A stretch of 64,000 nt of DNA, from positions 202,333 through 266,332 of the forward strand of contig JAXGMI010000003.1 of NCBI GenBank assembly GCA_040768745.1, read 5' to 3'. Positions within the stretch are counted from its first letter, which is position 1, and each line of letters begins with the position of its first letter. Shown piece by piece: positions 29,565 through 60,615 of the stretch. The notes beneath the pieces are model-generated. The model was not told where the DNA came from and did no database searches. It saw only the letters and a list, made by a program, of their open reading frames with translations. Made by a program: the position numbers and the translations under genes. The stretch comes from Desulfomicrobium sp. (GTDB lineage Bacteria; Desulfobacterota; Desulfovibrionia; Desulfovibrionales; Desulfomicrobiaceae).

Positions 29565-29715
29565 TGGATTCCCGCCTATCCTGACGGGCGCACGTTCGTG
29601 GGATGACGCGACGATGTGAAGGCTTGAGGTTTGCCTGCCGGACCAGCCAAGGCAGATGCCTGCCCTCGACGTCATTCCCGCGCAGGCGGGCTTGTACCCG
29701 ATAGGGTGAATCCAT
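29565..29715. repeat. Inverted pair of REP-like palindromes (CGTCATTCCCGCGMAGGCGGGAATCC type), each with an 18-nt insert
   Basis: Copies at about 29566-29608 and 29670-29715; uninterrupted copies at 34895 and 38085. Confidence 0.75.
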
Positions 29716-29942
29716 GCCTTTCAAAGCCGCCCCCATTCGCCATGCCGAGCATGGGTGCGCAACGGATCAGCGAGCCTTTTTGCGCGGCAATCCGGCCTTT
29801 CGCCGGCCTGATCCAGACCCAGTTCCGGTGAACCGCGCCCTTCTCCCCGTGCTGTTGACATTCCAAAGATTCCTTACCATGAAGAGCCACTTCAGAGTAA
29901 GAAAACCGGCACAGTCCGAAATCTGTATTCCCGGAGGGGACA

Positions 29943-31577
29943 ATGTTCAAGAGACTTCTCGTCAGCCTCGCATTCCTGCTGCTCTGCGCCGCACAGGTCT
30001 CGGCGGAGGTCAAGACCTTCGCGGTCCTGCCCTTTGGCGTGCACGGCCCGCAGGAATATCAATATCTGAGCCAGGGCATCCAGAGCATGCTGACCACCCG
30101 CCTGACCTGGCCCGACACCTTCACGCCGTTGGATGCCGGGACGGTCAAGAAGGCCGTGACTGCACCTCCCGCCGATGCCGCCGCTGCCACCAAAATCCGC
30201 CAGGCCCTGGGTACTGATTACCTGGTGTGGGGTTCCCTGACCGTCATGGGTCAGGAATGCAGCCTGGACGTCAACACGCTGGATCCTGCGGGTCAGAACA
30301 CTCCCCATCCGGTCCAGACCACCTTGAGCCAGGTCATCCCCAGTTTGGAAACCGTGTCCAAGAACATCAATGCGCAGGTCTTCGGCAAGCCCGAAACAGC
30401 CGTGGCCAAGGCCCAGCCCGCGGTCCAGCCCATGAACCAGGCCCTCATCGTCAACGAGACCCAGGGCGGTACGGCCTATGCCAACCCCTCCCTCAAGTAT
30501 CAGGACATGGATGCGAGCATGGGCCGCTGGCGCAGTCAGACCCTGCCTGTTGCCTCGCGCGGCATGGTCGTCTGCGACGGGGACGGGGACGGCAAGAATG
30601 AAGTCTTCATGCTGACCGAGACCACCCTGTTCGCCTTTCGCATTCAGCAGAACGAGATGCGCGAGGTCGCAAAGCTGGAGCTGCCCAAACATGTCAACTT
30701 CGTGCGGCTGAACAGCATCGACCTGAACCGCGACGGTCGCCACGAACTGGTCATTGCCGGGGCCATGGACAAGGACCCGCGGTCCCTTGTGGTGGGATTC
30801 GAAGGCGGGAAATTCTCCATGCAGGCCGACCGCATTCCCTACTTCCTGGGCGTTCTGAACATGCCGCCGGCCTTCACCCCCACCCTGGTGGGCCAGGGCG
30901 TGGGCCAGATGAAATACCTGGACAGCAAGATCCACCAGATGATCAAGGCCGAGGGCACGTATGCCCTCGGACCGGCCGTGGACCTGCCCATGGGCGGCAC
31001 AGTCTTCAACACGACCTTCCTCCCTTTTGAAGACGGGCACCAGATCATCATGGTCGACGACTTCGACCGCATGCGCATCTACAGCTCCACGGGCGCCCTC
31101 CTGACCGTCACCGAAGAAACCTATGCCGGGTCCAACCTGGGTGTGGAATACAGCACCGCCCCTCTCGGGCTCAACCCCCCGCGCGCCACGGAGGTTCCGC
31201 CGGACAAGGTCTTCATCCCTCTGCGGGGCATTCCCACAAACCTGGACAAGGACAAACGTTATGAACTGATCATCAGCCGGAACATCTCGGTCTCGGCCCA
31301 GATTTTCTCCAACTACCGCGACTACCCCCAGGGCGAGATCCATTCCCTGTACTGGGACGGGGTGGGCATGAGCCTGCAATGGAAGACGGCCCGCATCAAG
31401 GGCACGGTGACCGACTATGCCCTGGCCGACCTGGACAATGACGGGACCCTGGATCTGGTGGTCAACATCAACACCCACACCGGCATGGTCGGCACGGCCA
31501 AGAAAAAGACCATGATCGTGGCCTACCCCCTGGATTTGTCCCAGGCAGGGGGGACGATTCAAAAAAATGTACCGTAA
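29943..31577 (+). CDS. Secreted FG-GAP/VCBS repeat protein
   Basis: Signal peptide; DGDGDGKNE, DLNRDGRHEL, DLDNDGTLDLV repeats. Confidence 0.85.
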   Translation: MFKRLLVSLAFLLLCAAQVSAEVKTFAVLPFGVHGPQEYQYLSQGIQSMLTTRLTWPDTFTPLDAGTVKKAVTAPPADAAAATKIRQALGTDYLVWGSLTVMGQECSLDVNTLDPAGQNTPHPVQTTLSQVIPSLETVSKNINAQVFGKPETAVAKAQPAVQPMNQALIVNETQGGTAYANPSLKYQDMDASMGRWRSQTLPVASRGMVVCDGDGDGKNEVFMLTETTLFAFRIQQNEMREVAKLELPKHVNFVRLNSIDLNRDGRHELVIAGAMDKDPRSLVVGFEGGKFSMQADRIPYFLGVLNMPPAFTPTLVGQGVGQMKYLDSKIHQMIKAEGTYALGPAVDLPMGGTVFNTTFLPFEDGHQIIMVDDFDRMRIYSSTGALLTVTEETYAGSNLGVEYSTAPLGLNPPRATEVPPDKVFIPLRGIPTNLDKDKRYELIISRNISVSAQIFSNYRDYPQGEIHSLYWDGVGMSLQWKTARIKGTVTDYALADLDNDGTLDLVVNINTHTGMVGTAKKKTMIVAYPLDLSQAGGTIQKNVP

Positions 31578-31699
31578 AAAAAATTTAACTTTGAGGGAAA
31601 ATCGAGGGAAAAAAGCTTGCTTTTTGAACTCGAGTTGCCGTAGTTGAAACCCAAGCGTCAGGTAATTCGTTTGTTTTTTAATGCTAAAGGAGGAAGAGC

Positions 31700-33046
31700 A
31701 TGAAACGTTTTGCACTCGTAGCCCTGTTGGCCGCCATGATGTTTGGCATTGCCACCAGCGCTTCCGCGACCGAACTGAAAGTGAAAGGCAATTTGGACGT
31801 CTACGGATTGTGGTCGGCCAACCTGCGTGATTTCGACTCCGATGTCAGCGACGGTGACAATTTCGGCGCCACCCAGCGTATGCGCACCTACTTCACCTTC
31901 CTGGCCAACGAGAACCTGAAGGCGGTCCTGGGCCTGGAAATCAACACCGATTGGGGCCAGGGCGCCGGCGGCGACTGGGGTACTGACGGCACGACCGACA
32001 CCCGCGTCAAGCACGCCTATATCGATTTCAACTTTCCGGACACCAAGATCAACACCAAGGCCGGCCTGCAGGCTATCTCCCTGCCCGGCGTCTTCGGCAA
32101 CCCTGTTTTCAGTGACGACGCCGCTTCCGTGGTGGTCAGCGCCCCCATCACCGACATGTTCGGCCTGGCCGTCGGGTATACCCGCGGCGCAGACCGCTAC
32201 GACCCCAATGATGTCAGCTTCAACAGAAACACCGGCGAGTTTGCTGACTATCCCGACCAGGACGACATGGACATGGTCTTCCTGCTCGCCCCCATCAAGC
32301 TGGAAGGTTTCGCGGTCACTCCGTACTTCGCCTATGCCATGGTTGGCGAGAACGTGTCCTTTGCTGGCCAGCAGGGCTTGGATACCGGCAATGCCGCCTA
32401 TGGGAATTACCTCCTTGACGATTCCACCATCTGGGTTGCTGGCGCCAACGCCAAGCTGACCGTGTTCGACCCGCTGACCTTTGCCGCTGACCTGATCTAC
32501 GGCGTCGGCGAGAACGACGACTACGAGACCAAGGGCTGGTATGCCGCCCTGGCCGGGTCCTACAAGTTCTCCATGCTGACCGCCACCCTGTTCGGCACCT
32601 ACGGCACCGGCGCGGACGACGAGGACGACGAGGACAACTTCCTGCCGACCCTGGCCGAAGCCTGGGAAATCACCCCTTACCTGGGTGGCAAGCGCGCCTT
32701 CAACACCGGCTGGTCTGATACAGGCTTCTTCACCGGCACCACCGTCACCGGCCGGGATGGAACCGGTATCTGGACCGTCGGCCTGAGCTTGGACAAGATC
32801 ACCTTTGTGGACAAGCTGTCCCACAGCCTGACCTTCGCTTATGCCCAGGGCACATCCGATGAAGACGCCGACGTGCTTTTCGACGAAGACGACTCCGCCT
32901 GGGAAGTGTACATGGTCAACAAGTACATGATCTACGAAAATCTGGCCGCCATCAACGAACTGGGCTTCTTCGCCCCGGATCTCGAAGATGCCGACGATGC
33001 CGACAACTCCTACTTCGCCACCATCGGCTTCAAGTACGACTTCTAA
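31700..33046 (+). CDS. Outer membrane homotrimeric porin (Desulfovibrio type), paralog 1
   Basis: Signal peptide ASA/TELKVKG, QRMRTYF, ENLKAVLGLEI, KHAYIDF, C-terminal F. Confidence 0.88.
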   Translation: MKRFALVALLAAMMFGIATSASATELKVKGNLDVYGLWSANLRDFDSDVSDGDNFGATQRMRTYFTFLANENLKAVLGLEINTDWGQGAGGDWGTDGTTDTRVKHAYIDFNFPDTKINTKAGLQAISLPGVFGNPVFSDDAASVVVSAPITDMFGLAVGYTRGADRYDPNDVSFNRNTGEFADYPDQDDMDMVFLLAPIKLEGFAVTPYFAYAMVGENVSFAGQQGLDTGNAAYGNYLLDDSTIWVAGANAKLTVFDPLTFAADLIYGVGENDDYETKGWYAALAGSYKFSMLTATLFGTYGTGADDEDDEDNFLPTLAEAWEITPYLGGKRAFNTGWSDTGFFTGTTVTGRDGTGIWTVGLSLDKITFVDKLSHSLTFAYAQGTSDEDADVLFDEDDSAWEVYMVNKYMIYENLAAINELGFFAPDLEDADDADNSYFATIGFKYDF

Positions 33047-33072
33047 GCAAAGCCTACACACCTGACGCCTGC

Positions 33073-33106
33073 GGGCCGGAGACGCAAAACTCCGGCCCTT
33101 TTTTTT
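33073..33106 (+). terminator. Rho-independent terminator
   Basis: GGGCCGGAG-ACGCAAAA-CTCCGGCCC + T8. Confidence 0.85.
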
Positions 33107-33403
33107 CCGGCGCATCCGGTTTGAGCGGACGCGCACAGATGGGCTCTTACAGCAATACTCCGAGCTTTCGACAGAACACAGCGGGTGAACATGACGTTTG
33201 ATTCGTCTTCGCGAGGCGTCTGCGCCGTGGCGATCCATGCGGATACCTCATCTCCTCCCTGCCCTTGCCGATCGGTCGGTACATTTTTTTTAACTTTCCC
33301 TGAAAATATGCCCAAAAAGGGATTGCTTTTTGTACCTTCTTTAATCTAGAAAATTGAGTTGGCGTCAGATGTCATTCATTATTGCAAAAGGAGAAAGTGT
33401 TCT

Positions 33404-34705
33404 ATGAAACGTTGTGCACTCGTTGCTCTGCTGGCCGCCATGCTGTTCGGCCTTGCCTTCAGCGCTTCCGCCACCGAGCTGAAGGTCAAAGGCAATCTGG
33501 ACGTTCACGGCCTGTGGTCAGCAAACCTGAGAGATTTTGATTCCGACACTGCTGATGGGGACAACTACTACACCACCCAGCGCATGCGCACCTACTTCAC
33601 CTTCCTGCAGAGCGAAAACCTGAAGGCGGTCCTGGGCCTGGAAATCAACACGGACTGGGGCCAGGGCTCCGGTGGCGACTGGGGTACCGACGGCACCCTC
33701 GACACCCGCGTCAAGCACGCCTACATCGATTTCAAGTTCCCGGACACGGCCATCAACGTCAAGGCCGGTTTGCAGGGAATCTCCCTGCCGAGCATCTTCG
33801 GCAACCCGGTTTTTGATGACGACGCCGCCGCCCTGGTGGTCAGCGCCCCCATCAACGATATGTTCGGCCTGACCGTCGGGTATACCCGCGGCGCAGACCG
33901 CAACGACAATAACGATGTCAGCTTCAACAGAATGACCGGGGAGTTCACAGATTATGCCGACCAGGACGACATGGACATGGCTTTCCTGGCCGCCCCCATC
34001 ACCCTGGACGCCTTTGCCCTGACCCCCTACTTCGCCTATGCCATGATCGGCGAGAACACGGGCTATTCCTACCAGAATAATGATGACTCCACTGTGTGGA
34101 TCGTGGGTGCCAATGCGGAACTGACCGTGTTCGACCCCCTGACCTTTGCCGCTGACGTGATCTACGGCGTTGGCGAAAGCGACGACTACGAGACCAAGGG
34201 CTGGTATGCCGATCTGGCCGCGTCCTACAAGTTCTCCATGCTGACCGCCACCCTGTTCGGCACCTACGGCACCGGCGCGGACGACGAGGACGACGAAGAC
34301 AACTTCCTGCCCACCCTGGCTGAAGGCTGGGAACTGACCCCCTACCTTGGCGGCCTCCGCGCCTTCAGCACCGCTGCCTCTGACGGCTTCTTCACCGACA
34401 CCGTGGGCGTGGGCAACTCCGGAACCGGCCTGTGGACTGTCGGCGTGAAGCTGGCCGACATCACCTTTGTCGACAAGCTGTCCCACAACCTGACTGTGCT
34501 GTACGCCAGGGGCACCTCCGACGAAGACGCCGACGTGTGGTTCGACGAAGAAGACTCCGCCTGGGAAGTGTACATGGTCAACAAGTACATGATCTACGAG
34601 AACCTGGCCGCCATCAACGAACTGGGCTTCTTCGCCCTGGATCATGACGATGCGGATACCGACAACTCCTACTTCGGTTCTGTCGGCTTGTCCTACAAGT
34701 TCTAG
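33404..34705 (+). CDS. Outer membrane homotrimeric porin, paralog 2
   Basis: Highly similar to paralog 1; AAGGAG RBS; C-terminal F. Confidence 0.88.
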   Translation: MKRCALVALLAAMLFGLAFSASATELKVKGNLDVHGLWSANLRDFDSDTADGDNYYTTQRMRTYFTFLQSENLKAVLGLEINTDWGQGSGGDWGTDGTLDTRVKHAYIDFKFPDTAINVKAGLQGISLPSIFGNPVFDDDAAALVVSAPINDMFGLTVGYTRGADRNDNNDVSFNRMTGEFTDYADQDDMDMAFLAAPITLDAFALTPYFAYAMIGENTGYSYQNNDDSTVWIVGANAELTVFDPLTFAADVIYGVGESDDYETKGWYADLAASYKFSMLTATLFGTYGTGADDEDDEDNFLPTLAEGWELTPYLGGLRAFSTAASDGFFTDTVGVGNSGTGLWTVGVKLADITFVDKLSHNLTVLYARGTSDEDADVWFDEEDSAWEVYMVNKYMIYENLAAINELGFFALDHDDADTDNSYFGSVGLSYKF

Positions 34706-34732
34706 TTCTGGTTTTTTCATCTGACGCCCCAA

Positions 34733-34766
34733 GGGCCGGAGACGCAAAACTCCGGCCTTTTTTTTT
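34733..34766 (+). terminator. Rho-independent terminator (same hairpin as after porin 1)
   Basis: GGCCGGAGACGCAAAACTCCGGCC + T9. Confidence 0.85.
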
Positions 34767-34894
34767 GCCAGCAACCCGTTCATCGCTCATTAACCTGGCG
34801 TGTCCCGGTTCACGGCCGATGAAGGGTTTGACTTTTCAGGGGTTGGCGGCATAGAAAATGGCGTTGGACAATACGTCTCCCTTGGGGACGAGAC

Positions 34895-34918
34895 GGATTC
34901 CCGCGAAGGCGGGAATCC
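34895..34918. repeat. REP-like palindrome
   Basis: GGATTCCCGC-GAAG-GCGGGAATCC. Confidence 0.75.
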
Positions 34919-34970
34919 AAGTCTTTGCCCGGGCAATCCGCACGCCCGGAACAGCAACATGAGAACATCG

Positions 34971-36272
34971 ATGCCCTTACATTCCATATCCTATTCTTCT
35001 TCCCAAGATTGGCCAGCCATCTCCTCCTGGCTGTCCCGCCGGGATGCATCCGCGGACAATGTCGAACCCCTGGTGCGCGACATCCTGGCCGCTGTCCGGG
35101 AACGCGGCGACGAAGCGGTCATCGGGTATGCCAGACGGTTCGACTGCCCGACCTTCTCCGCGGAACAGCTGGCCGTGTCCGGAAAGCAGATCGCCCGCGC
35201 CCTGGACCACATCCCAGCCGAGGATGCCGGGATCATCGCCGAGGCCGCCGGCAACATCCGCTCTTTTCACGAGCATCAGAAACAGCGCTCCTGGATCACC
35301 ACCCCCGCCCCCGGCACGACCCTGGGCCAGCTCATCCTGCCTGTGGACCGGGCCGGGCTGTATGTCCCCGGCGGTCAGGGCGGGGAGACGCCCCTCATCT
35401 CCAGCCTGATGATGAACGCCATCCCGGCGCAGGTGGCCGGGGTGAAGAGCATCTGCGTGGTCAGCCCCCCCCGCAAGGACGGTTCGTTGAATCCCTATAT
35501 CCTTGCCACGGCGGCCATTCTCGGCATCGACACGGTCTTTCTGTGCGGGTCGGCCTGGGCCATTGCGGCCCTGGCCTACGGCACGGCCAGCATTCCGCGG
35601 GTCGATGTCATCGCCGGTCCTGGCAATATCTTCGTGACCACGGCCAAGCGCCTTCTGGTCGGCCAGGTCGGCATCGACATGATCGCCGGACCGAGTGAAA
35701 TCGCCATCCTGGCCGACTCCTCGGCCAACCCGAAATGGCTGGCCGCTGACATGCTCTCCCAGGCCGAGCACGACCCCCTGGCTTCAAGCCTCCTGGTTTC
35801 GCCTGATGCCGCGTTGCTGCACGCCGTCAGGGATGAACTCGCGGTCCAGCTTTCCGCCCTGCCCCGGGCCGAGATCGCGGCCAAGGCCATGTCCGACTGG
35901 AGCGCGCTGATCCAGGTGCCCAGCCTGGAAGCCGGCATGGACCTGATCAACCTGCTCGCCCCTGAGCATTTCGAGCTGTGCGTGTCCGACCCGTGGCCCC
36001 TGCTCGGCATGGTCCGCAATGCCGGCGCGGTGTTCATGGGCCACAGCACCCCCGAGCCCGTGGGCGACTATTTCGCCGGGCCCAACCACGTCCTGCCGAC
36101 CCTGTCCACGGCCCGCTTCTCCTCGGCCTTGTCCGTGGACACATTCTGCAAAAAAACAAGCCTCATCAGCACGGACATGCGGTACATGCAAACCCATGGC
36201 CGTAAAATTTCCCGTTTGGCCCGGCTGGAGGGCCTTGAAGCCCATGCCCGCAGCGTGGAGCAACGACTGTAA
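34971..36272 (+). CDS. hisD: Histidinol dehydrogenase
   Basis: GLYVPGG, IDMIAGPSE, SQAEHD, APEH, GDYFAGPNHVLPT, EGLEAHA. Confidence 0.96.
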   Translation: MPLHSISYSSSQDWPAISSWLSRRDASADNVEPLVRDILAAVRERGDEAVIGYARRFDCPTFSAEQLAVSGKQIARALDHIPAEDAGIIAEAAGNIRSFHEHQKQRSWITTPAPGTTLGQLILPVDRAGLYVPGGQGGETPLISSLMMNAIPAQVAGVKSICVVSPPRKDGSLNPYILATAAILGIDTVFLCGSAWAIAALAYGTASIPRVDVIAGPGNIFVTTAKRLLVGQVGIDMIAGPSEIAILADSSANPKWLAADMLSQAEHDPLASSLLVSPDAALLHAVRDELAVQLSALPRAEIAAKAMSDWSALIQVPSLEAGMDLINLLAPEHFELCVSDPWPLLGMVRNAGAVFMGHSTPEPVGDYFAGPNHVLPTLSTARFSSALSVDTFCKKTSLISTDMRYMQTHGRKISRLARLEGLEAHARSVEQRL

Positions 36273-36284
36273 CCCGGAGGTTGC

Positions 36285-37184
36285 ATGAACATCGTCACCA
36301 AGACCAATATCCGCGAATTCCCCCTCCTTTCGCGCGGAAAAGTTCGCGATATCTATGAAATCGATGCGCAGACCCTGCTCATCGTGACCACGGACCGCAT
36401 GTCCGCCTTTGACGTGGTCATGAACGAGGCCATCCCGTACAAAGGCGTGGTCCTGAACCGGATCACCGTGTTCTGGATGGACACATTCAAGGATCTGGTC
36501 GCCAATCACCTCCTGGCCACGGATGTGCGCGACTTCCCGGCGGCCCTGACCCCGTATCACGACCAGCTGGAAGGGCGGGCAGTGCTGGTCCGACGGGCCA
36601 GGCCCCTGCCCATCGAATGCATCGTGCGCGGCTACCTGACCGGCTCGGGCTACAAGGACTATCTCGCCACGGGCTCGGTCAGCGGCCACAAGCTCCCGGC
36701 CGGACTGGTCGACGCGGACAAGCTGGAAAAACCTCTGTTCACCCCGTCCACCAAGGCCGATCTTGGCCAGCACGACGAGAACATCAGCCTGGCCGACGCC
36801 AAATCCCGCATCGGCGAAGGACTGGTCAAAAAAGTGCAGGATCTGTCCTTGGCCATCTACTCCCGCGGCCGGGATCTGGCTGCCAGCCGTGGCATCATCA
36901 TCGCCGACACCAAATTCGAGTTTGGTCTGGACGGCAAGGAACTTCTGCTCATCGACGAGGTGCTGACCCCGGATTCCTCCCGCTTCTGGCCGGCCGGCCA
37001 GTACGCGCCTGGGAAATCCCAGCCCAGCTTCGACAAGCAGTATCTGCGGGACTGGCTGAGCGGCACCGGGTGGGACAAGACCCCGCCTCCGCCGGCTCTC
37101 CCGGCCGAAGTCATCGCCGAGACACAGAAGAAATACCTGGAAGCCTACGAACTGCTGACTGGCGAACCCTTGCAATTGCCGTAA
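36285..37184 (+). CDS. purC: SAICAR synthase
   Basis: GKVRDIY, DRMSAFD, ECIVRGY, DTKFEFG, DEVLTPDSSRFW. Confidence 0.96.
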   Translation: MNIVTKTNIREFPLLSRGKVRDIYEIDAQTLLIVTTDRMSAFDVVMNEAIPYKGVVLNRITVFWMDTFKDLVANHLLATDVRDFPAALTPYHDQLEGRAVLVRRARPLPIECIVRGYLTGSGYKDYLATGSVSGHKLPAGLVDADKLEKPLFTPSTKADLGQHDENISLADAKSRIGEGLVKKVQDLSLAIYSRGRDLAASRGIIIADTKFEFGLDGKELLLIDEVLTPDSSRFWPAGQYAPGKSQPSFDKQYLRDWLSGTGWDKTPPPPALPAEVIAETQKKYLEAYELLTGEPLQLP

Positions 37185-37197
37185 GGCGCAACCCAAC

Positions 37198-37974
37198 ATG
37201 GAGAAGCACATGCTCGTCCAAGGAAAAAAAGCTTTGATCTTCGGAGTGGCCAACGACAAGAGCATCGCCTACGCCATTGCCAAGGAACTCAAGGAGAATG
37301 GCGCATCCATTGCCCTTTCCTATGCCGGCGAGGCCCTCAAAAAACGGGTCGAACCGATTCACGAGGAACTGAACGGGGACTTCCTCTTCCAGTGCGACGT
37401 GACCGACGACCAGGCCCTGGTCCAATCCGCCGAGCTGGTGAAGGAGAAATGGGGCAATTTCGATATCCTGGTCCATTCCATAGCCTTTGCCAACCGCGAC
37501 GATCTGAAAGGCCGCTATGTCGACACGCCCCGGGCAGGGTTCCATTTGGCCATGGACATTTCGGCCTATTCCCTGGTGGCCCTGTGTCAGGCCTTTGAGA
37601 AGATGATCAATGACCACGGCTCGATCATGGCCATGACCTATTACGGGTCCGAGAAAGTCATCCCCAATTACAACATCATGGGCGTGGCCAAGGCCGCCCT
37701 GGAAACCAGCGTCCGCTATCTGGCCATGGACCTGGGCGAGCGGGGAATCCGGGTCAACGCCATCAGCGCCGGTCCCCTCAAGACCCTGGCCTCGTCCGGC
37801 ATCTCCGGCTTCAAAACCATTCTGTCCACCATCGAGGAGCGCGCCCCCCTGCGCCGCAACATCGTGCAGGAAGACGTGGGCAAGACCGGACTGTTCCTGG
37901 CCTCGGACCTGTCCCTGTCCATCACCGGGGAAGTCATCCACGTGGACTCCGGCTACAACATCATGGGGATCTGA
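37198..37974 (+). CDS. fabI: Enoyl-ACP reductase
   Basis: GVANDKSIA, HSIAFA, YNIMGVAKAALE, SAGPLKTLA. Confidence 0.95.
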   Translation: MEKHMLVQGKKALIFGVANDKSIAYAIAKELKENGASIALSYAGEALKKRVEPIHEELNGDFLFQCDVTDDQALVQSAELVKEKWGNFDILVHSIAFANRDDLKGRYVDTPRAGFHLAMDISAYSLVALCQAFEKMINDHGSIMAMTYYGSEKVIPNYNIMGVAKAALETSVRYLAMDLGERGIRVNAISAGPLKTLASSGISGFKTILSTIEERAPLRRNIVQEDVGKTGLFLASDLSLSITGEVIHVDSGYNIMGI

Positions 37975-38000
37975 TCCATTCCCGGACATCAGACGACATC

Positions 38001-38029
38001 AAACCCCTTCCCGCGAAGGGGTTTTTTTT
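38001..38029 (+). terminator. Rho-independent terminator
   Basis: AAACCCCTTC-CCGC-GAAGGGGTTT + T run. Confidence 0.85.
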
Positions 38030-38084
38030 CGCCTTCAATCCTCTTTCCGATTCATTGTTCACGACCCCGCCCCCCGATGAAGAT

Positions 38085-38230
38085 GGATTCCCGCCTTCGC
38101 GGGAATGACGCTTCCGGTCTCGTCAATTCTTCTTCCTATTCGGCCTTCCGATGAATAACGGACCGTCCGCGCAACATCCGGGCATTCCCGCGCACGTGTG
38201 CACAGCATGGGCAGGTGGGAATCCATCTTC
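38085..38230. repeat. Inverted pair of REP-like palindromes; second copy has a 19-nt insert
   Basis: GGATTCCCGCCTTCGCGGGAATGACG (38085-38110) and CATTCCCGCGC[19 nt]AGGTGGGAATCCATCTTC (38183-38230). Confidence 0.75.
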
Positions 38231-38273
38231 CTGCAGCCAACCGCGACAACAATTCCGTCCTCCAGCGCCTCAA

Positions 38274-38447
38274 GGTCCGTTGGCGGCGGGGCATTCGACC
38301 CCGTCGGCTGTCTGACTGAGCCAGGCATCGTTTGTTGAATCGTTGTCTGACGCGCGGCCTGGATTTCGCACACGACACGCAACGATTCAACTCTAAGAGG
38401 CCAGCGAAGGAGTTCCGGCGGGTCGAATGCCCCGCCGCCAACGGACC
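38274..38447. repeat. Element bounded by a perfect 28-bp inverted repeat (REPIN/MITE-like)
   Basis: GGTCCGTTGGCGGCGGGGCATTCGACCC (38274-38301) and its exact reverse complement (38420-38447). Confidence 0.8.
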
Positions 38448-38593
38448 GCCTCGCGCATACCTCACACCTCATGCCTCATACCGCTTGCATCTTCCGCAAG
38501 CCGCAGCCCCTTCCTTTCCAACCGCCACCTTGCGCCGCGCCCGAAGATGCTTATTTCCCAATACTTCAACACCATAAACCGGAGGCCACCCTC

Positions 38594-39025
38594 ATGGAAA
38601 AAATACACGCCGTCTGTCCCAACTGCCAGGCCGTCAACGCCGTGCTGGCCGAGCGCATCCCCCAGCAACCTGTCTGCGGGAAATGCGGGACCGCACTCCT
38701 GTCCGGCCATCCCGTGGATCTCACGGACCTGACCTTCGACCGCCTCATTTCCCGCTCCACCCTGCCCGTGGTGGTCGATTTCTGGGCGCCCTGGTGCGGG
38801 CCCTGCAAGATGATGGGCCCGGCCTTCGCGCAGGCCGCTGCCGCGCTGCAAGGGCAGGCGGTTCTGGCCAAACTGGACACCGAATCCCACGGAACAGTGG
38901 CGTCCAGGTTTGGAATCCAGTCCGTGCCCAGCATGATCCTGTTCCGTCAGGGCAGGGAAACAGCCCGTACGGCCGGGGCCATGCCCCCCGGGCAGATCCT
39001 GTCCTGGGTGCGCCAGCATCTCTAG
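38594..39025 (+). CDS. trxC: Thioredoxin 2 (Zn-finger N-terminus)
   Basis: CPNC...CGKC and DFWAPWCGPC. Confidence 0.93.
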   Translation: MEKIHAVCPNCQAVNAVLAERIPQQPVCGKCGTALLSGHPVDLTDLTFDRLISRSTLPVVVDFWAPWCGPCKMMGPAFAQAAAALQGQAVLAKLDTESHGTVASRFGIQSVPSMILFRQGRETARTAGAMPPGQILSWVRQHL

Positions 39026-39115
39026 ACATTGTGCGGAAACGGAAATTGCGGCACCCCGACAATTTTCCACTTGCCAAAGAAATTCGCGTGACATAGAGAC
39101 GGATTTCTCTCGCGC

Positions 39116-39207
39116 GGAGAGGTGGCCGAGTCTGGCTTAAGGCGCACGCCTGGAAAGTGTGTGTACCTTAACGGGTACCGGAGGTTCAAATCCTCTCCTC
39201 TCCGCCA
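39116..39207 (+). tRNA. tRNA-Ser(GGA)
   Basis: GGAGAGG/CCTCTCC acceptor stem, CT-GGA-AA loop, long variable arm, TTCAAATCC, CCA. Confidence 0.95.
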
Positions 39208-39219
39208 CTCCTACAAATT

Positions 39220-39310
39220 GAGCGAAGCCGGGTGGCGGAAACGCTGCCAACCCCGTCAGGTCTGAAAGGAAGCAGCGGTAACAGTTGTTTTCGGGTACCT
39301 GGCTTCCCTG
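39220..39310 (+). ncRNA. ffs: Signal recognition particle RNA (4.5S)
   Basis: Domain IV TCAGGTCTGAAAGGAAGCAGC inside a long hairpin GAAGCCGGGT...ACCTGGCTTC; ends approximate. Confidence 0.9.
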
Positions 39311-39491
39311 GCAGGTGCGACATGTTCGTTCCTGCCTTTTCTTTTTTCTCCCCCCTTGACGCCGCCCTGAATCCATCCAATGAAGAATGGATGGCATATC
39401 GACATTGAATCCATCAATGCCCCCCATTTGTGTTTTCAGTTTCAATCTGAATACAATTTCAGGTACTGCCAAAATTCCTCAAGGAGGAGCC

Positions 39492-40340
39492 GTGAAGAAA
39501 TTCTCGTTTATGGTTAGCTTGCTGATGGGGCTGGGTGTCCTGCTTCTGACCTGGCCAGACCACGCCTGTTCCGCCCGCATGGGTGGTGGGAAGTCCTTTG
39601 GGAGCAGGCCATCCTATTCCCAGAAATACCAGAAACCCGCTCCTGCGCCTGCTTCCCCGACCCAGCAGGCTGCGCCTGCCGGTTCCCCCATGGGAGGGCG
39701 CGGCATGTTCGGCGGCCTCCTGGGCGGCATGCTCATGGGCGGCCTCCTGGGATCCCTCTTTTTCGGCGGCCCGTTCACAGGCCCCTCCCTCGTGGACATC
39801 CTGCTCATCGGCGGCGGCCTGTTCCTGCTTTTTCGCTTTCTGCGCAGCCGGCAGCCGGCCATGCAGACCCCGGGCAGTCCTGCGCGGGACAGGAGCCCTG
39901 GAGGGGCATGGGACACCTTGCGCTCGGCGCAGTCCTCCCCCCAGTCCCCGAGTTCTCGCGTCCCGGCGGGATTTGACGAACAGGAGTTCCTGGACGGCGC
40001 CAAGGCCGCCTACACCCGCCTGCAGGCAGCGTGGGACGCACGCGATCTGGAGGACATCCGCCAATTCACCTCCGACGAGGTTTATGCGGAGATCCAAGCC
40101 CAGACTGCCACAGACCCCAATCCTGGCCGCACGGAAATTCTTCTGCTGGAAGCCCGGCTGCTGGAAGTGAACACCCTGGGCAACCAGACCGTGGCCACCG
40201 TTCTTTTTGACGCCATGCTGCGCGAAGGTTCTGCCCACAAGCAGGCCGAACAGGTCCGCGAGGCGTGGCATTTCAGCCGCTACGAAACAGGCGGCAGCTC
40301 GCACTGGGTCGTGGAAGGCATCCAGCAGCTGGAGCGGTAG
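39492..40340 (+). CDS. Tim44 domain-containing protein
   Basis: ARMGGGKSFGSR, Gly-rich TM, GFDEQEFL.GAK.AY..LQ.AWD, WVVEGIQQ; GTG start after AGGAGG. Confidence 0.88.
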   Translation: MKKFSFMVSLLMGLGVLLLTWPDHACSARMGGGKSFGSRPSYSQKYQKPAPAPASPTQQAAPAGSPMGGRGMFGGLLGGMLMGGLLGSLFFGGPFTGPSLVDILLIGGGLFLLFRFLRSRQPAMQTPGSPARDRSPGGAWDTLRSAQSSPQSPSSRVPAGFDEQEFLDGAKAAYTRLQAAWDARDLEDIRQFTSDEVYAEIQAQTATDPNPGRTEILLLEARLLEVNTLGNQTVATVLFDAMLREGSAHKQAEQVREAWHFSRYETGGSSHWVVEGIQQLER

Positions 40341-40566
40341 CCATGCCTGAGGATACGATCAGCTGCCCGATCTGCGGCCATCCCGCACGCATCAGCGGCA
40401 GGTGAGCCACGGCGCGCATCTTGTGCGGGTTCTGCATGAGTGACGTCCTGGCCGCCCATCATCGGGACGCCATCGAGGCCTACAAAGAAGCGCTTATTGC
40501 CGGCGCCAATCCTGACCAGACGCCGGAACATAGAATTGTCACACTCAATTGCGAAAGGGAGCAACC

Positions 40567-41319
40567 ATGAAACGCATCGTCACCCTGACCATCCTGTTCT
40601 GTTCCATTGCCTCCTCCGTACTGGCCGCAAATCCCGAGGATGCGCTCAAGGCCCTGAACCTTGGCAACCAGAAGTACGTTCTGGAGCAATCCATGGAAGG
40701 CGGACCGCTGGCTGCCGTCATTGTCGATCCGACCGTAAGCGCATCTCCTGCTGCCCTGTTCGGGCTTGCGGGTACCCAGCTGATCGCGGCCAAAACCGAT
40801 GGCACAGGGCTGGAACAGGCCCTGGGGGCCCCCCTGATTCTCATCCTCGGGACCGAGGAAAATGCCGTGTGGGCAGTCTATGCCGAAGTGCTGAAGTCCT
40901 CCGCAGATCTGATCCACGCAGTGCTCAAAGGAAAGACCGTCATCCAGGGCGCTGTCCTGACCCCTTCCACTGGCGAGGTGAAAATCCTGGGCTCCCATCC
41001 CGATCTTGTGATCATGGCCGCCCAGCACGTCCTGGGCACCCCAGCCCAGCCTGCTCCAGCTGACGCGACGCCCGCCCCCCCAGCAATGGAAAACCCCGCT
41101 GCCGGGGAATCCCCTGCAGCCCAAACCCAGGCCGATCCCGCACCGGAAGCGGCACAAGGTGAAAGCCATGCGACGCCGGTCCAAGCCGACCAGAACGCTG
41201 CCACGGCAGAAAAGCACGAAGCGCCTGCCTCTGGCGGAGGGCCTGTCGGTGTCATCATTTTCATCCTGGCCCTCATCGCCGCCGTGGTTTTCATGGATAA
41301 AACCGTGCTGAAACCCTGA
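40567..41319 (+). CDS. Degenerate beta-carbonic-anhydrase-like exported protein with C-terminal TM anchor
   Basis: Signal peptide; PEDALKALNLGNQKY and GAVLTPSTGEVKILGSHP align to the neighbouring CA; Zn-ligand motifs absent. Confidence 0.65.
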   Translation: MKRIVTLTILFCSIASSVLAANPEDALKALNLGNQKYVLEQSMEGGPLAAVIVDPTVSASPAALFGLAGTQLIAAKTDGTGLEQALGAPLILILGTEENAVWAVYAEVLKSSADLIHAVLKGKTVIQGAVLTPSTGEVKILGSHPDLVIMAAQHVLGTPAQPAPADATPAPPAMENPAAGESPAAQTQADPAPEAAQGESHATPVQADQNAATAEKHEAPASGGGPVGVIIFILALIAAVVFMDKTVLKP

Positions 41320-41365
41320 ACCAGCTCATTCGATTTCTAAATGAGAATGATGCCCGAAAAAGTCA

Positions 41366-41483
41366 TGGGTTGCCACGCGCCCTGCGGTCGCACCCTGAAG
41401 GGTATGGACTCGCAATGACGAGAAACGACTCTCGTCATCGCGCAGGGCTCGACTTTTGCGAGGAGTCTTCGACGAAGCAATCC
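41366..41483. repeat. Inverted pair of REP-like palindromes (CGTCATTGCGAG...GCAATCC type), each with an 18-nt insert
   Basis: GGGTTGCCACGCGCCCTGCGGTCGC[18]TCGCAATGACG and CGTCATCGCG[18]AGGAGTCTTCGACGAAGCAATCC. Confidence 0.7.
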
Positions 41484-41735
41484 ACGCCTTTTGAAATTAC
41501 TGCTTTGATATAGAAATTGAATGACCAGCGGCGTGCAGGGACGACTTGCGCGCCGTTTTTTTTGGCATGACGCCCATGGCCTCGCGAAAGATGCATTCTT
41601 CCGATAGGGGGACGCCTTGAAATGCGAGAGAGGTTAGGATAAGCTTGTGCAACTTTTCCCGAGCGGCACGATGCGACGGCAGCGTCACACGCAGGGGGGG
41701 TGCACATCAATTTTCACAATTGCAGGGGGTTTCGC

Positions 41736-53958: not shown

Positions 53959-54018
53959 CCCTGTCCATGTTCCGTCTTGACAGGAAAAAAGGCTTTCCAT
54001 AAAGAAGCGTTTCCCTGC

Positions 54019-54092
54019 TGGGCGATCGTTCAACGGCAGGACAGCGGACTCTGACTCCGTCAATCTTAGTTCGAATCTAAGTCGCCCAGCCA
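54019..54092 (+). tRNA. tRNA-Gln(CTG)
   Basis: TGGGCGA/TCGCCCA stem, CT-CTG-AC, TTCGAATC, CCA. Confidence 0.95.
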
Positions 54093-54096
54093 TTCC

Positions 54097-54174
54097 GTCC
54101 CCATCGTCTAGCTAGGTCCAGGACACCGGCCTTTCACGCCGATAACAGGGGTTCAAATCCCCTTGGGGACGCCA
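54097..54174 (+). tRNA. tRNA-Glu(TTC)
   Basis: GTCCCCA/TGGGGAC stem, CT-TTC-AC, TTCAAATCC, CCA. Confidence 0.95.
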
Positions 54175-54186
54175 CATTTCCACTTC

Positions 54187-54260
54187 TGGGCGATCGTTCA
54201 ACGGCAGGACAGCGGACTCTGACTCCGTCAATCTTAGTTCGAATCTAAGTCGCCCAGCCA
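54187..54260 (+). tRNA. tRNA-Gln(CTG), identical second copy
   Basis: Same sequence as 54019-54092. Confidence 0.95.
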
Positions 54261-54264
54261 TCCC

Positions 54265-54342
54265 GTTTCCATCGTCTAGCTAGGTCCAGGACCCCGGCCT
54301 TTCACGCCGATAACAGGGGTTCAAATCCCCTTGGGGACGCCA
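54265..54342 (+). tRNA. tRNA-Glu(TTC), variant second copy
   Basis: As the first copy but 5' stem GTTTCCA and GGACCCC in place of GGACACC. Confidence 0.85.
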
Positions 54343-58564: not shown

Positions 58565-59479
58565 GGGTCAGATCTTGAATCTTGAATTTTTTCGGACCAT
58601 TTCCTCTCCATGGCCCGACCACTCCGCATAGAATTTCCGGGAGCCATCTACCATGTGACATCCCGGGGCAACGCCCAGGCTCCCATTTTTCTGGACGACA
58701 TCGACAGGATCACCTTTCTCTCCGTCCTCGGACTGACAATGCGCCGGTTCAACGTGATCTGCCATGCGTATTGCCTGATGACCAACCACTTCCATCTCCT
58801 GCTTGAGACTCCAGACGCCAATCTGTCCAAGGCCATGCGCCAGTTCAACAGCGTCTACACGCAGGCATTCAACCGGCGGCATGCGCCCTGGTCACGTGCT
58901 GCAAGGGCGGTTCAAATCCATTGTCGTTGACCGGGACGCCTATCTTCTCGAACTGTGCCGATATATTGTCCTCAACCCCCTAAGGGCGCGGGATAGTCAA
59001 GGAGCCTGGAAAGTATCTATGGTCCAGTTACCGGGCCACGGCAGGGTTTCGGGAAAGAAACCGGATTTTCTGGCGCGTGGACTGGATTCTGGAACAGTTC
59101 GGCACTGATCGCGTCCAGGCCTTGGAAAGAGTGTCCGTCTTTTTGTCAAGGCAGGGCTGGATTCGAATCGCCATGGAATGACCTCAAGGACAGTGCCTGC
59201 TCGGAGACGACCCGTTTCTGGAGAAGCTTTTTCCCCTGCTCAAGGACAAAAGCGCTTTCAAGGAGATCCCTCGCATTCAGCGTTTTGCCGACCGTCCGGC
59301 CTTGGAGGAGATATTACAGGGCACAGAAGGCCGTGCGCAGCGTGACGCAGCCATCCTCAAGGCCTGCCATGTGTACGGATACACCCAGGCACACGTTGCT
59401 GCCGCGACAGGATTGCACTATTCGACGGTCAGCAAAATCATCAGGAAGATTGAATAATTCAAGATTCAAGATCTGACCC
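58565..59479 (+). mobile_element. RAYT-like Y1 transposase unit, copy 1, bounded by 24-bp inverted repeats
   Basis: GGGTCAGATCTTGAATCTTGAATT (58565-58588) and its exact reverse complement (59456-59479). Confidence 0.8.
58610..59457 (+). pseudogene. REP-associated-type tyrosine (HUH, Y1) transposase, frameshifted
   Basis: MARPLRIEFPGAIYHVTSRGN, YCLMTNHFHLL; indels versus copy 2 after about 58880. Confidence 0.8.
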
Positions 59480-59696: not shown

Positions 59697-60615
59697 GGGT
59701 CAGATCTTGAATCTTGAATTTTTGGAGATTTCCTCTCCATGGCCCGACCACTCCGCATAGAATTTCCGGGAGCCATCTACCACGTGACATCCCGGTGCAA
59801 CCGCGCCCAGGCTTCCATTTTTCTGGACGACATCGACAGGAACACCTTCCTCTCCGTCCTCGGACTGACAATGCGCCGGTTCAACGTGATCTGCCATGCG
59901 TATTGCCTGATGACCAACCACTTCCATCTCCTGCTTGAGACTCCAGACGCCAATCTGTCCAAGGCCATGCGCCAGTTCAACAGCGTCTACACGCAGGCAT
60001 TCAACCGGCGGCATGCCCGGGTTGGTCACTTGCTGCAAGGGCGGTTCAAATCCATTGTCGTTGACCGGGACGCCTATCTTCTCGAACTGTGCCGATATAT
60101 TGTCCTCAACCCCGTAAGGGCCAGGATGGTCAAGGAGCCTGGAAAGTATCCATGGTCCAGTTACCGGGCCACGGCAGGGCTAGGAAAGAAACCGGATTTT
60201 CTGGCTGTGGACTGGATTCTGGAACAGTTCGGCACTGATCGCGTCCAGGCCCGGAAAGAGTACCGTCTTTTTGTCAAGGCGGGGCTGGATTCCGAATCGC
60301 CATGGAATGACCTCCGAAAGGACAGGAATGCGCTGCTCGGAGACGACCCGTTTCTGGAGAAGCTTTTCCCCCTGCTCAAGGACAAAAGCGCTTTCAAAAA
60401 GATCCCTCGCATTCAGCGTTTTGCCGACCGTCCGGCCTTGGAGGAGATATTACAGGGCACAGAAGGCCGTGCGCAGCGTGACGCAGCCATCCTCAAGGCC
60501 TGCCATGTGTACGGATACACCCAGGCACACGTTGCTGCCGCGACAGGATTACACTATTCAACGGTCAGCAAAATCATCAGGAAGATTGAATAATTCAAGA
60601 TTCAAGATCTGACCC
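59697..60615 (+). mobile_element. RAYT-like Y1 transposase unit, copy 2, bounded by the same 24-bp inverted repeats
   Basis: IRs at 59697-59720 and 60592-60615. Confidence 0.8.
59739..60593 (+). CDS. REP-associated-type tyrosine (HUH, Y1) transposase with C-terminal HTH
   Basis: HFH motif, QGRFKS, RYIVLNPVRA (catalytic Tyr), YPWSSY, C-terminal HTH GYTQAHVA...GLHYSTVSKII. Confidence 0.88.
   Translation: MARPLRIEFPGAIYHVTSRCNRAQASIFLDDIDRNTFLSVLGLTMRRFNVICHAYCLMTNHFHLLLETPDANLSKAMRQFNSVYTQAFNRRHARVGHLLQGRFKSIVVDRDAYLLELCRYIVLNPVRARMVKEPGKYPWSSYRATAGLGKKPDFLAVDWILEQFGTDRVQARKEYRLFVKAGLDSESPWNDLRKDRNALLGDDPFLEKLFPLLKDKSAFKKIPRIQRFADRPALEEILQGTEGRAQRDAAILKACHVYGYTQAHVAAATGLHYSTVSKIIRKIE

Follow-up and report, generated by a model that had tools for sequence, protein, structure and literature searches.

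The window analysed here, a stretch of 64,000 nucleotides from a Desulfomicrobium sp. genome (contig JAXGMI010000003.1, positions 202,333 to 266,332 of the forward strand), contains repetitive extragenic palindromes (REPs) of the CGTC-tagged kind that are interrupted by copies of an 18-nucleotide hairpin unit, which is very probably an independently mobile element. At locus 1 two CGTCATTCCCGCG..AGGCGGGAATCCA repeats form a dimer, and locus 2 lies in a second type of CGTC-tagged REP (Table 1). An initial annotation had placed two such 18-mers at 29690-29707 and 41392-41409 and described them as one motif inserted in two unrelated REP families. Both sequences were present there and were identical at 11 of 18 positions, but the register had to be shifted. 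We set it one base further 3', because copies ending in A follow a host G (L002, L004, L009) and because of head-to-tail arrays, one of which, in G016, has four units with a period of 18; from the window copies alone the two registers are indistinguishable. The resulting consensus is Y-N-N-R-TRCCC-NNNA-GGGTR, the first four bases of which we call the leader. The description of the hosts as unrelated was overstated, since both are types of one CGTC-tagged REP superfamily. Judged by sequence, the locus 1 repeats can be identified as the NTS of PMC11893778 and as a CGTC-tagged REP as in PMC3733652. The locus 2 repeat, judged by its tag, appears to belong to the same superfamily.

At locus 1 both REPs are filled in the window, and both orthologous REPs are empty in the relatives G018 and G014. 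A similar copy of 19 nucleotides occupies, in G019 and G003, the loop position of the worn third copy in the window. For locus 2 no clear orthologous REP was located in relatives; near-identical empty REPs occur at L023 and L504, and a second filled example of this host lies at G000 C1:1123260. Among the 12 CGTC-1 matches in the genome, nine are empty, two are filled in the 3' arm and one is filled in the loop.

Match counts alone give weak support in the source genome. The motif first proposed, G-N4-TACCC-N3-AGGGT, which was built on the two window copies themselves, occurs twice in the window against 0.00 expected from shuffles; the bare hairpin ACCC-N4-GGGT is at chance level (2 against 1.76 expected). 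Genome-wide the motif has five matches, three of them in REPs and two chance-like. With the refined consensus and no mismatch, the 3.09-Mb genome yielded 8 matches where the reversed control yielded 3; with one mismatch allowed, the figures were 29 and 37, respectively. The support comes from context: 11 of the 29 one-mismatch matches fall on three recurring positions in CGTC-type REPs, and two further worn copies recognised by eye bring the number to about 13. The initial annotation had held that a count at chance level, with no association with interrupted targets, would speak against mobility; the counts are indeed weak against the control, but the copies are tied to interrupted targets.

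Table 1. Copies of the 18-nucleotide element and host REPs in the window; a slash marks the point of insertion.
Feature	Position	Strand	Particulars
Element, copy 1	29691..29708	+	Leader CTTG, stem TACCC, loop GATA, stem GGGTG
Insertion site of copy 1			GCGGG/AATCC of CGTC-1/NTS-type REP
Host REP 1, CGTC-1/NTS type (CGTCATTCCCGCG..AGGCGGGAATCCA)	29670..29714	+	Split in 3' arm; fits the NTS definition in PMC11893778
Element, worn third copy	29577..29594	-	Two departures from consensus
Insertion site of third copy			Loop of partner REP (CGAA/GGCGG)
Partner CGTC-1 REP of the locus 1 dimer, host of third copy	29565..29608	-	
Empty CGTC-1 REP	38085..38110	-	Reference empty allele in the window
Element, copy 2	41391..41408	-	Leader TCCA, stem TACCC, loop TTCA, stem GGGTG
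Insertion site of copy 2			GCGAG/CGACC
Host REP 2, second CGTC-tagged type (CGTCATTGCGAG...GTGGCAAYCC)	41366..41420	-	3' end also given as GGCAAYCC

Other inserts and duplications were seen alongside these copies. The partner REP of locus 2 (41433-41484) has 18 extra bases at 41439-41456 (-) that resemble a worn copy of a second, unrelated 18-nucleotide module. This module has the core CAGGCTCWGCGTG and occurs at several positions of GTCATTGCGAG-type REPs, in the same genome and in relatives (L022, L023, L493, L494, L510). At G000 C1:1344454-1344497 and C1:515238-515281 both REP strands are filled, so that two inverted copies stand seven bases apart in a much longer palindrome. Elsewhere in the window, 31700-33046 and 33359-34705 form a tandem gene duplication of about 85% identity, and 54010-54342 is a tandem duplication of 165 nucleotides.

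Spread within the genus and across phyla

The REP filled in its 3' arm was found in 9 of 24 relatives from the genus and in none of 16 genomes from elsewhere in the order; the control gave no hits, and this spread is partly the amplification of a REP that was already filled. The unit has further hosts in the genus. It occurs within a longer repeat resembling a miniature inverted-repeat transposable element (MITE), where it follows GAAGCGTA, and G007 and G020 hold it in CCCCCTCC-type repeats, of which an empty version exists at the same locus. Recurrent genus matches in coding DNA (L512-type, L522) proved to be native codons and were set aside. In a sample of the phylum, 22 of 401 genomes matched, against about 47 in the reversed control by our own count, and the distribution of the family is patchy, since only G000 and G304 carried several copies.

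A scan with one genome per species was then considered. Among the at least 120 matching stretches listed, 43 had supporting context by crude flags; the remaining 77 of the 120 are chance or undecided and are not counted as members. Consensus matches and matches to the reversed control pattern were counted in genomes chosen because they had already matched, under the taxon names of their sequence records. Counts were high in Omnitrophota (G440, 115/0), where many copies share one host repeat, Planctomycetia (G441, 105/0), Anaerolineae (G454, 41/2), the archaeal Aenigmatarchaeota (G450, 29/0) and Brevinematales (G439, 27/4). They were followed by Solirubrobacterales (G451, 21/4), G456 (18/1), Caldilinea (G442, 18/4), Aminicenantes (G452, 14/3), Thiobacillus (G449, 10/1), Anaerolineales (10/1), G457 (5/3), Sporotomaculum (5/1), Alphaproteobacteria (3/0) and Nostoc (2/3). 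The Nostoc family as a whole was at background level, with 65 matches against 65 for the control in 41 genomes. The copies in G450 adjoin the archaeal exosome genes Rrp41, Rrp42 and Rrp4 and other archaeal genes, and at those loci they are therefore not a binning error. Two of the Sporotomaculum matches are real, and both lie in 5S rRNA copies that carry other inserts. These copies (L140, L175) hold other short hairpins beside the 18-mer, one is without part of its 5' region, and they may be pseudogenes.

The densest set was found in a Mu-like provirus of 32 kb (G444, 53/0). Fifty of its 53 copies, intergenic ones included, lie on one strand, opposite to the phage genes, and many are in frame within genes. 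One protein has nine extra residues, encoded by a full unit and a partial one, that are missing from all 8 aligned homologues (25 were found). In-frame insertion into coding sequence, for which the initial annotation had suggested looking, was thus seen, though outside the source genome. Outside the provirus, copy orientation relative to genes was uninformative (37 sense and 50 antisense, by crude calls of open reading frames). The same provirus (L407, L408, L370-L374) carries a 24-nucleotide module made of a 21-nucleotide hairpin, TCCTYGCYC-NNN-GRGCRAGGA, plus three bases. This module is found as single units, as tandem copies and interleaved with copies of the 18-mer, in frame too, and would form a dumbbell as well if closed up. 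A third short repeat of the provirus encodes LSKQG. Single matches in viral contigs were dismissed as largely due to chance, with 112 against 40 for the reversed control; about half of the 112 come from a single coding motif in polymerases of small RNA viruses, which gave no Rfam match.

Arrays, internal structure and insertion sites

A metagenome scan for tandem dimers, in which bases 1-4 were left free, returned at least 120 stretches, and the same kind of scan in viral sequences returned 8 stretches in 3 contigs, against 1 for the control. Arrays among the matches listed reach nine units. Some mix variants and some consist of identical units, and their edges show partial units and runs of four-base leaders. 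The unit also nests in its own loop. A TRCCCG left flank precedes it in 9 of 159 contexts, from a few genomes, and in several of these it has clearly entered an older copy of another variant, just behind the first base of the loop, which is beyond what slippage can make.

The arrays also revealed a relation between the ends of the leader. Of the at least 120 loci listed, 108 allowed a second unit to be parsed, and in 90 of these base 1 is complementary to base 4 (C-G in 65, T-A in 21), compared with a mean of 53 and a maximum of 67 in shuffles. Positions 1 and 4 are the pair with the highest mutual information in this set, 0.65 bits. A hand count over ten of the genomes counted above (G449, G450, G451, G452, G454, G456, G457, Nostoc, Anaerolineales and Alphaproteobacteria) gave 134 paired matches out of 153, against 32 of 65 background matches from the Nostoc family. 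The commonest leaders are CTTG (28), CCTG (25), TTTA (17) and CGTG (6), and the same leader middles are found with both closing pairs (CTTG/TTTA, CTCG/TTCA, CGTG/TGTA). Most loops end in A, one genome having a GAAT variant; the GNRA type is frequent, as are TTCA (20) and TTTA (19), and GTTA, GTCA and GATA also occur. Since the leader abuts the stem, a pair between bases 1 and 4 would extend the stem to six pairs and bring base 1 beside base 18, giving a nicked dumbbell. PMC9975016 describes as DNA type II tetraloops both the preferred leaders CTTG, CCTG, TTTA and CGTG and the loop sequences TTCA and TTTA, and reports a closing pair between bases 1 and 4, shown by nuclear magnetic resonance, for CTTG, CCTG, TTTA, CGTG and TTCA. 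Filled REPs did not fold better than shuffles (z of -1.3, -1.2 and +0.3).

Insertion sites were compared in 120 non-redundant contexts, from which worn neighbours and nested cases had been removed; host families repeat in this set, and a few chance matches remain in it. A purine precedes the unit in 102 of the 120 contexts and a pyrimidine follows it in 91. G, G and T are enriched at -5, -3 and -2, as in the tail of the unit, and the left flank matches the tail GGGTR at a mean of 1.61 of 4 positions, with control windows at 0.82-1.27. The same 18-nucleotide ends recur in hosts with unrelated right flanks. Target duplications of three bases were seen in 1 of 130 contexts and of two bases in 18 of 130; these counts, and the absence of terminal inverted repeats, led us to reject a MITE of the DDE type. 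Empty sites fold at -6.5 kcal/mol, which is somewhat more stable than the -5.0 kcal/mol of shuffles.

Routes of movement and comparison with known systems

The independent mobility suggested by the initial annotation draws good support from filled and empty orthologous sites, from three insertion positions in CGTC-tagged REPs and two further repeat families in the genus, and from heterogeneous tandem arrays, nesting in the loop of a different, older copy and in-frame insertion. As to how the unit moves, IS200/IS605 and REP systems suggest an analogy: we propose that it is a non-autonomous micro-element of single-stranded DNA, moved as a dumbbell by an enzyme acting in trans. We favour this reading tentatively, at slightly less than an even chance. 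The single-stranded unit would fold as a nicked dumbbell, in which the NNNA loop is closed by the pairing of bases 5-9 with bases 14-18, and a two-base loop, stacked on that stem, by a pair between bases 1 and 4, so that the first and last base come to lie side by side. A putative strand-transfer enzyme, most likely HUH/Y1-like, would release the 18-nucleotide dumbbell, closed or nicked, and join it into exposed single-stranded or hairpin DNA at a step from purine to pyrimidine, with fixed polarity and with no duplication of three bases or more. Because the 5' flank of the target resembles the tail of the element, the end and the loop of an existing copy would become new targets, and mixed tandem arrays and nested copies would follow. 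With a length of 18, reading frames stay open. We infer a DNA rather than an RNA route, together with the dumbbell or circle intermediate and the class of the enzyme.

Several observations weigh against this proposal. Counted by distinct leader type, the covariation of bases 1 and 4 is weaker (13 of 31, p ~0.02); the copies are not independent, and the stem sequence is invariant, hence free of compensatory changes. ViennaRNA did not support the closed form, giving circular energies of +0.3 to +2.7 kcal/mol and no pair between bases 1 and 4, with a model that may mishandle two-base loops. The last base of the unit tends to equal the last base of the target (A/A in 24 of 27), and some events may therefore duplicate one base. 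In five high-copy genomes, none of 30 Y1 transposase loci and none of 9 reverse-transcriptase loci had a copy of the element at a distance of up to about 1.5 kb, while 2 of 16 GIY-YIG loci did; G439 has 27 copies and yet no Y1 match. Clustering of 2373 frames near copies gave no gene family common across taxa, the clusters being element- or host-made frames, orthologous neighbours and common gene families. Finally, no excised form, 18-base deletion or empty allele at the window's copies was found among the matches listed from four runs of assembled contigs, which drop rare variants.

Candidate genes were also inspected singly. The open reading frames of provirus G444, read by eye, contained no likely mover. 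One of the two small GIY-YIG genes of the source genome is flanked by another repeat and the other by none, and the Y1 genes viewed in G000 carry repeats other than the 18-mer. Two adjacent genes of the window (58610-58930 and 59739-60593) resemble Y1 or REP-associated tyrosine transposases (RAYTs); the first is truncated, both are bounded by GGGTCAGATCTTGAATCTTGAA repeats, and no link to the element was seen. At G000 C1:899170-902388 (L091), long arrays of CCGTTCGCCCTGAGC...GTCGAAGGG repeats enclose a short GIY-YIG frame, some 98 codons in length, which lies beside a Y1 gene.

The first alternative needs no dedicated enzyme, and we regard it as rather unlikely. The 3' end of a polymerase, freed at nicks or stalled hairpins (cut, for example, by RAYT or Ssn nucleases), would switch template through a few bases of likeness to the tail, copy one or more units across the dumbbell and switch back. 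Such template switching would suit the resemblance of left flanks to GGGTR, the enrichment of sites in repeats and hairpins, the partial units and leader runs at array edges and the lack of a linked enzyme among the loci above; the 50:3 strand bias in the provirus is also what a replication-linked process might give. The right flanks are unrelated, however, so that the return switch has no homology, and a stem sequence fixed across domains suggests recognition by a protein.

Movement through RNA, with transcribed copies cut out or reverse-transcribed and then reinserted, seems a little less probable still. Such a route has reportedly been considered for cyanobacterial small dispersed repeats (SDRs). 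It could draw on the frequent GNRA loops, on copies within 5S rRNA genes and on two native tRNA-Leu genes (L226, L611) whose anticodon stem and variable arm together match the 18-mer over its full length. Many of the loops, however, are of types other than GNRA and fit DNA tetraloops better; G441 and G439, both of which may be incomplete, gave no reverse-transcriptase match; and a tRNA leader pairs elsewhere and would not yield the covariation of bases 1 and 4. The tRNA-Leu arms of the source genome itself do not match, and the matches in L226 and L611 were therefore taken as chance and a tRNA origin was rejected. An apparent insertion in a tRNA T-loop (L191) sits in a duplicated tRNA 3' end and not in the gene, and window positions 39164-39181 (-), antisense to the variable arm of tRNA-Ser(GGA), agree at 12 of 13 informative consensus positions, which was likewise taken as chance.

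An old entry into a few repeats, once or twice, followed by passive amplification with REPs and MITEs and by slippage into arrays, is very unlikely as a full account. It explains part of the copy number: same-type filled REPs recur across the genus, one host repeat is common to many G440 copies, and arrays of identical units exist. Such hitchhiking is largely refuted by nested insertions and by those at unique sites, and it does not explain the sites found across domains. Even with slippage it could not by itself have produced three insertion positions in CGTC REPs, copies in several hosts unrelated to one another, in-frame phage-gene sites that are unique, 5S rRNA sites, copies in archaeal intergenic hairpins, nested variant copies and mixed arrays. 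Least likely of all is a double-stranded route, in which a dimeric recombinase or nuclease would read the palindromic frame R-Y-N-N-R-T and stem as duplex and the covariation would reflect symmetric protein recognition; the R/Y junctions at element end and target do resemble conservative site-specific exchange, but targets share little else in sequence, empty sites fold more stably than shuffles and an 18-bp duplex circle is physically implausible.

A bolder form of the single-stranded-DNA proposal, which we hold with somewhat less confidence, combines several claims. A closed DNA dumbbell of 18 nucleotides would be a mobile element of bacteria, archaea and phages; it would move by one single-strand exchange at the nick, into targets paired by its own 5' arm, and would leave six-codon blocks in proteins. 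The closed-dumbbell design, a short leader and a hairpin with a total length divisible by three, may underlie other micro-elements as a general class, the 24-nucleotide unit of G444 for example. The unit is a candidate for one of the smallest mobile pieces of DNA. This family bears on how repeats of less than 30 bases such as SDRs and CGTC-tagged REPs spread. It supplies a fixed sequence of 18 bases, an exact nick position, a rule for targets and, as a structural prediction, the pair between bases 1 and 4 that would close the dumbbell. It also offers a route by which six-residue blocks enter proteins, and inserts enter RNAs, in both prokaryotic domains.

A literature search, covering main texts and few subscription papers, found no description of this family. 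CGTC-tagged REPs consist of four leading bases and a hairpin, with no linked transposase and none known (PMC3733652), and the 18-nucleotide element is like them in all these respects. CGTC-tagged REPs and the Neisseria NTS-SRM repeats with their Ssn GIY-YIG nucleases (PMC3733652, PMC11893778) are the hosts in the source genome; the element is a shorter passenger of other sequence, with no link to GIY-YIG genes at the loci compared (2 of 16). The accessible text of these papers describes no such inserts, and their consensus tables could list filled variants. Unlike the unpaired tags of GTAG- and CGTC-tagged REPs, the leaders (CTTG, CCTG, TTTA, CGTG and others) have complementary bases 1 and 4.

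IS200/IS605 elements of the HUH class carry a tetranucleotide where the 5' side of a hairpin has its foot, pass through circular single-stranded intermediates and have an end that resembles the target (10.1101/279083, PMC3116915). With these and with REPs moved by RAYTs (TnpA-REP) the 18-nucleotide element shares a tetranucleotide 5' of the hairpin, polar insertion and the lack of a target duplication, one base in some events being possible. It has a single hairpin in 18 nucleotides, whereas IS200/IS605 elements have hairpins of 20-25 nucleotides at each of two ends. Its cut site would be the foot of the stem, unlike that of IS200/IS605 and of REPs or REPINs, and no Y1 gene flanked by the same hairpin was seen at the 30 loci. 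In Pseudomonas REPs the excision of singlets has reportedly been sought and not found. DNA minidumbbells (PMC9975016) provide a structural parallel that comes from repeat-expansion chemistry and involves no mobile element. The 18-nucleotide element is thus neither a tagged REP, nor a MITE, nor a shown derivative of IS200.

The closest likeness is to the very small mobile repeats of the SDR type, a known kind of which this family is probably a variant. SDR1-8 of the Nostocaceae, attributed to Elhai et al. in 2008, are said to be 21-27 nucleotides long, to nest, to use heptamer repeats as hosts and to have a conserved structure, their mover not being known. The 18-nucleotide unit is likewise nested and hosted by other repeats, and shares with these repeats precise dispersed insertion at filled and empty sites. 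It differs from them in length, which is 18 by array period and empty alleles, and in lineage, being at background in the Nostoc family and high in copy number in several other phyla, an archaeon and a provirus. Tandem copies are a further trait in common (PMC5861425, PMC4390886, PMC2884548), while the covariation that closes the ends into a putative dumbbell distinguishes the present family from SDRs.

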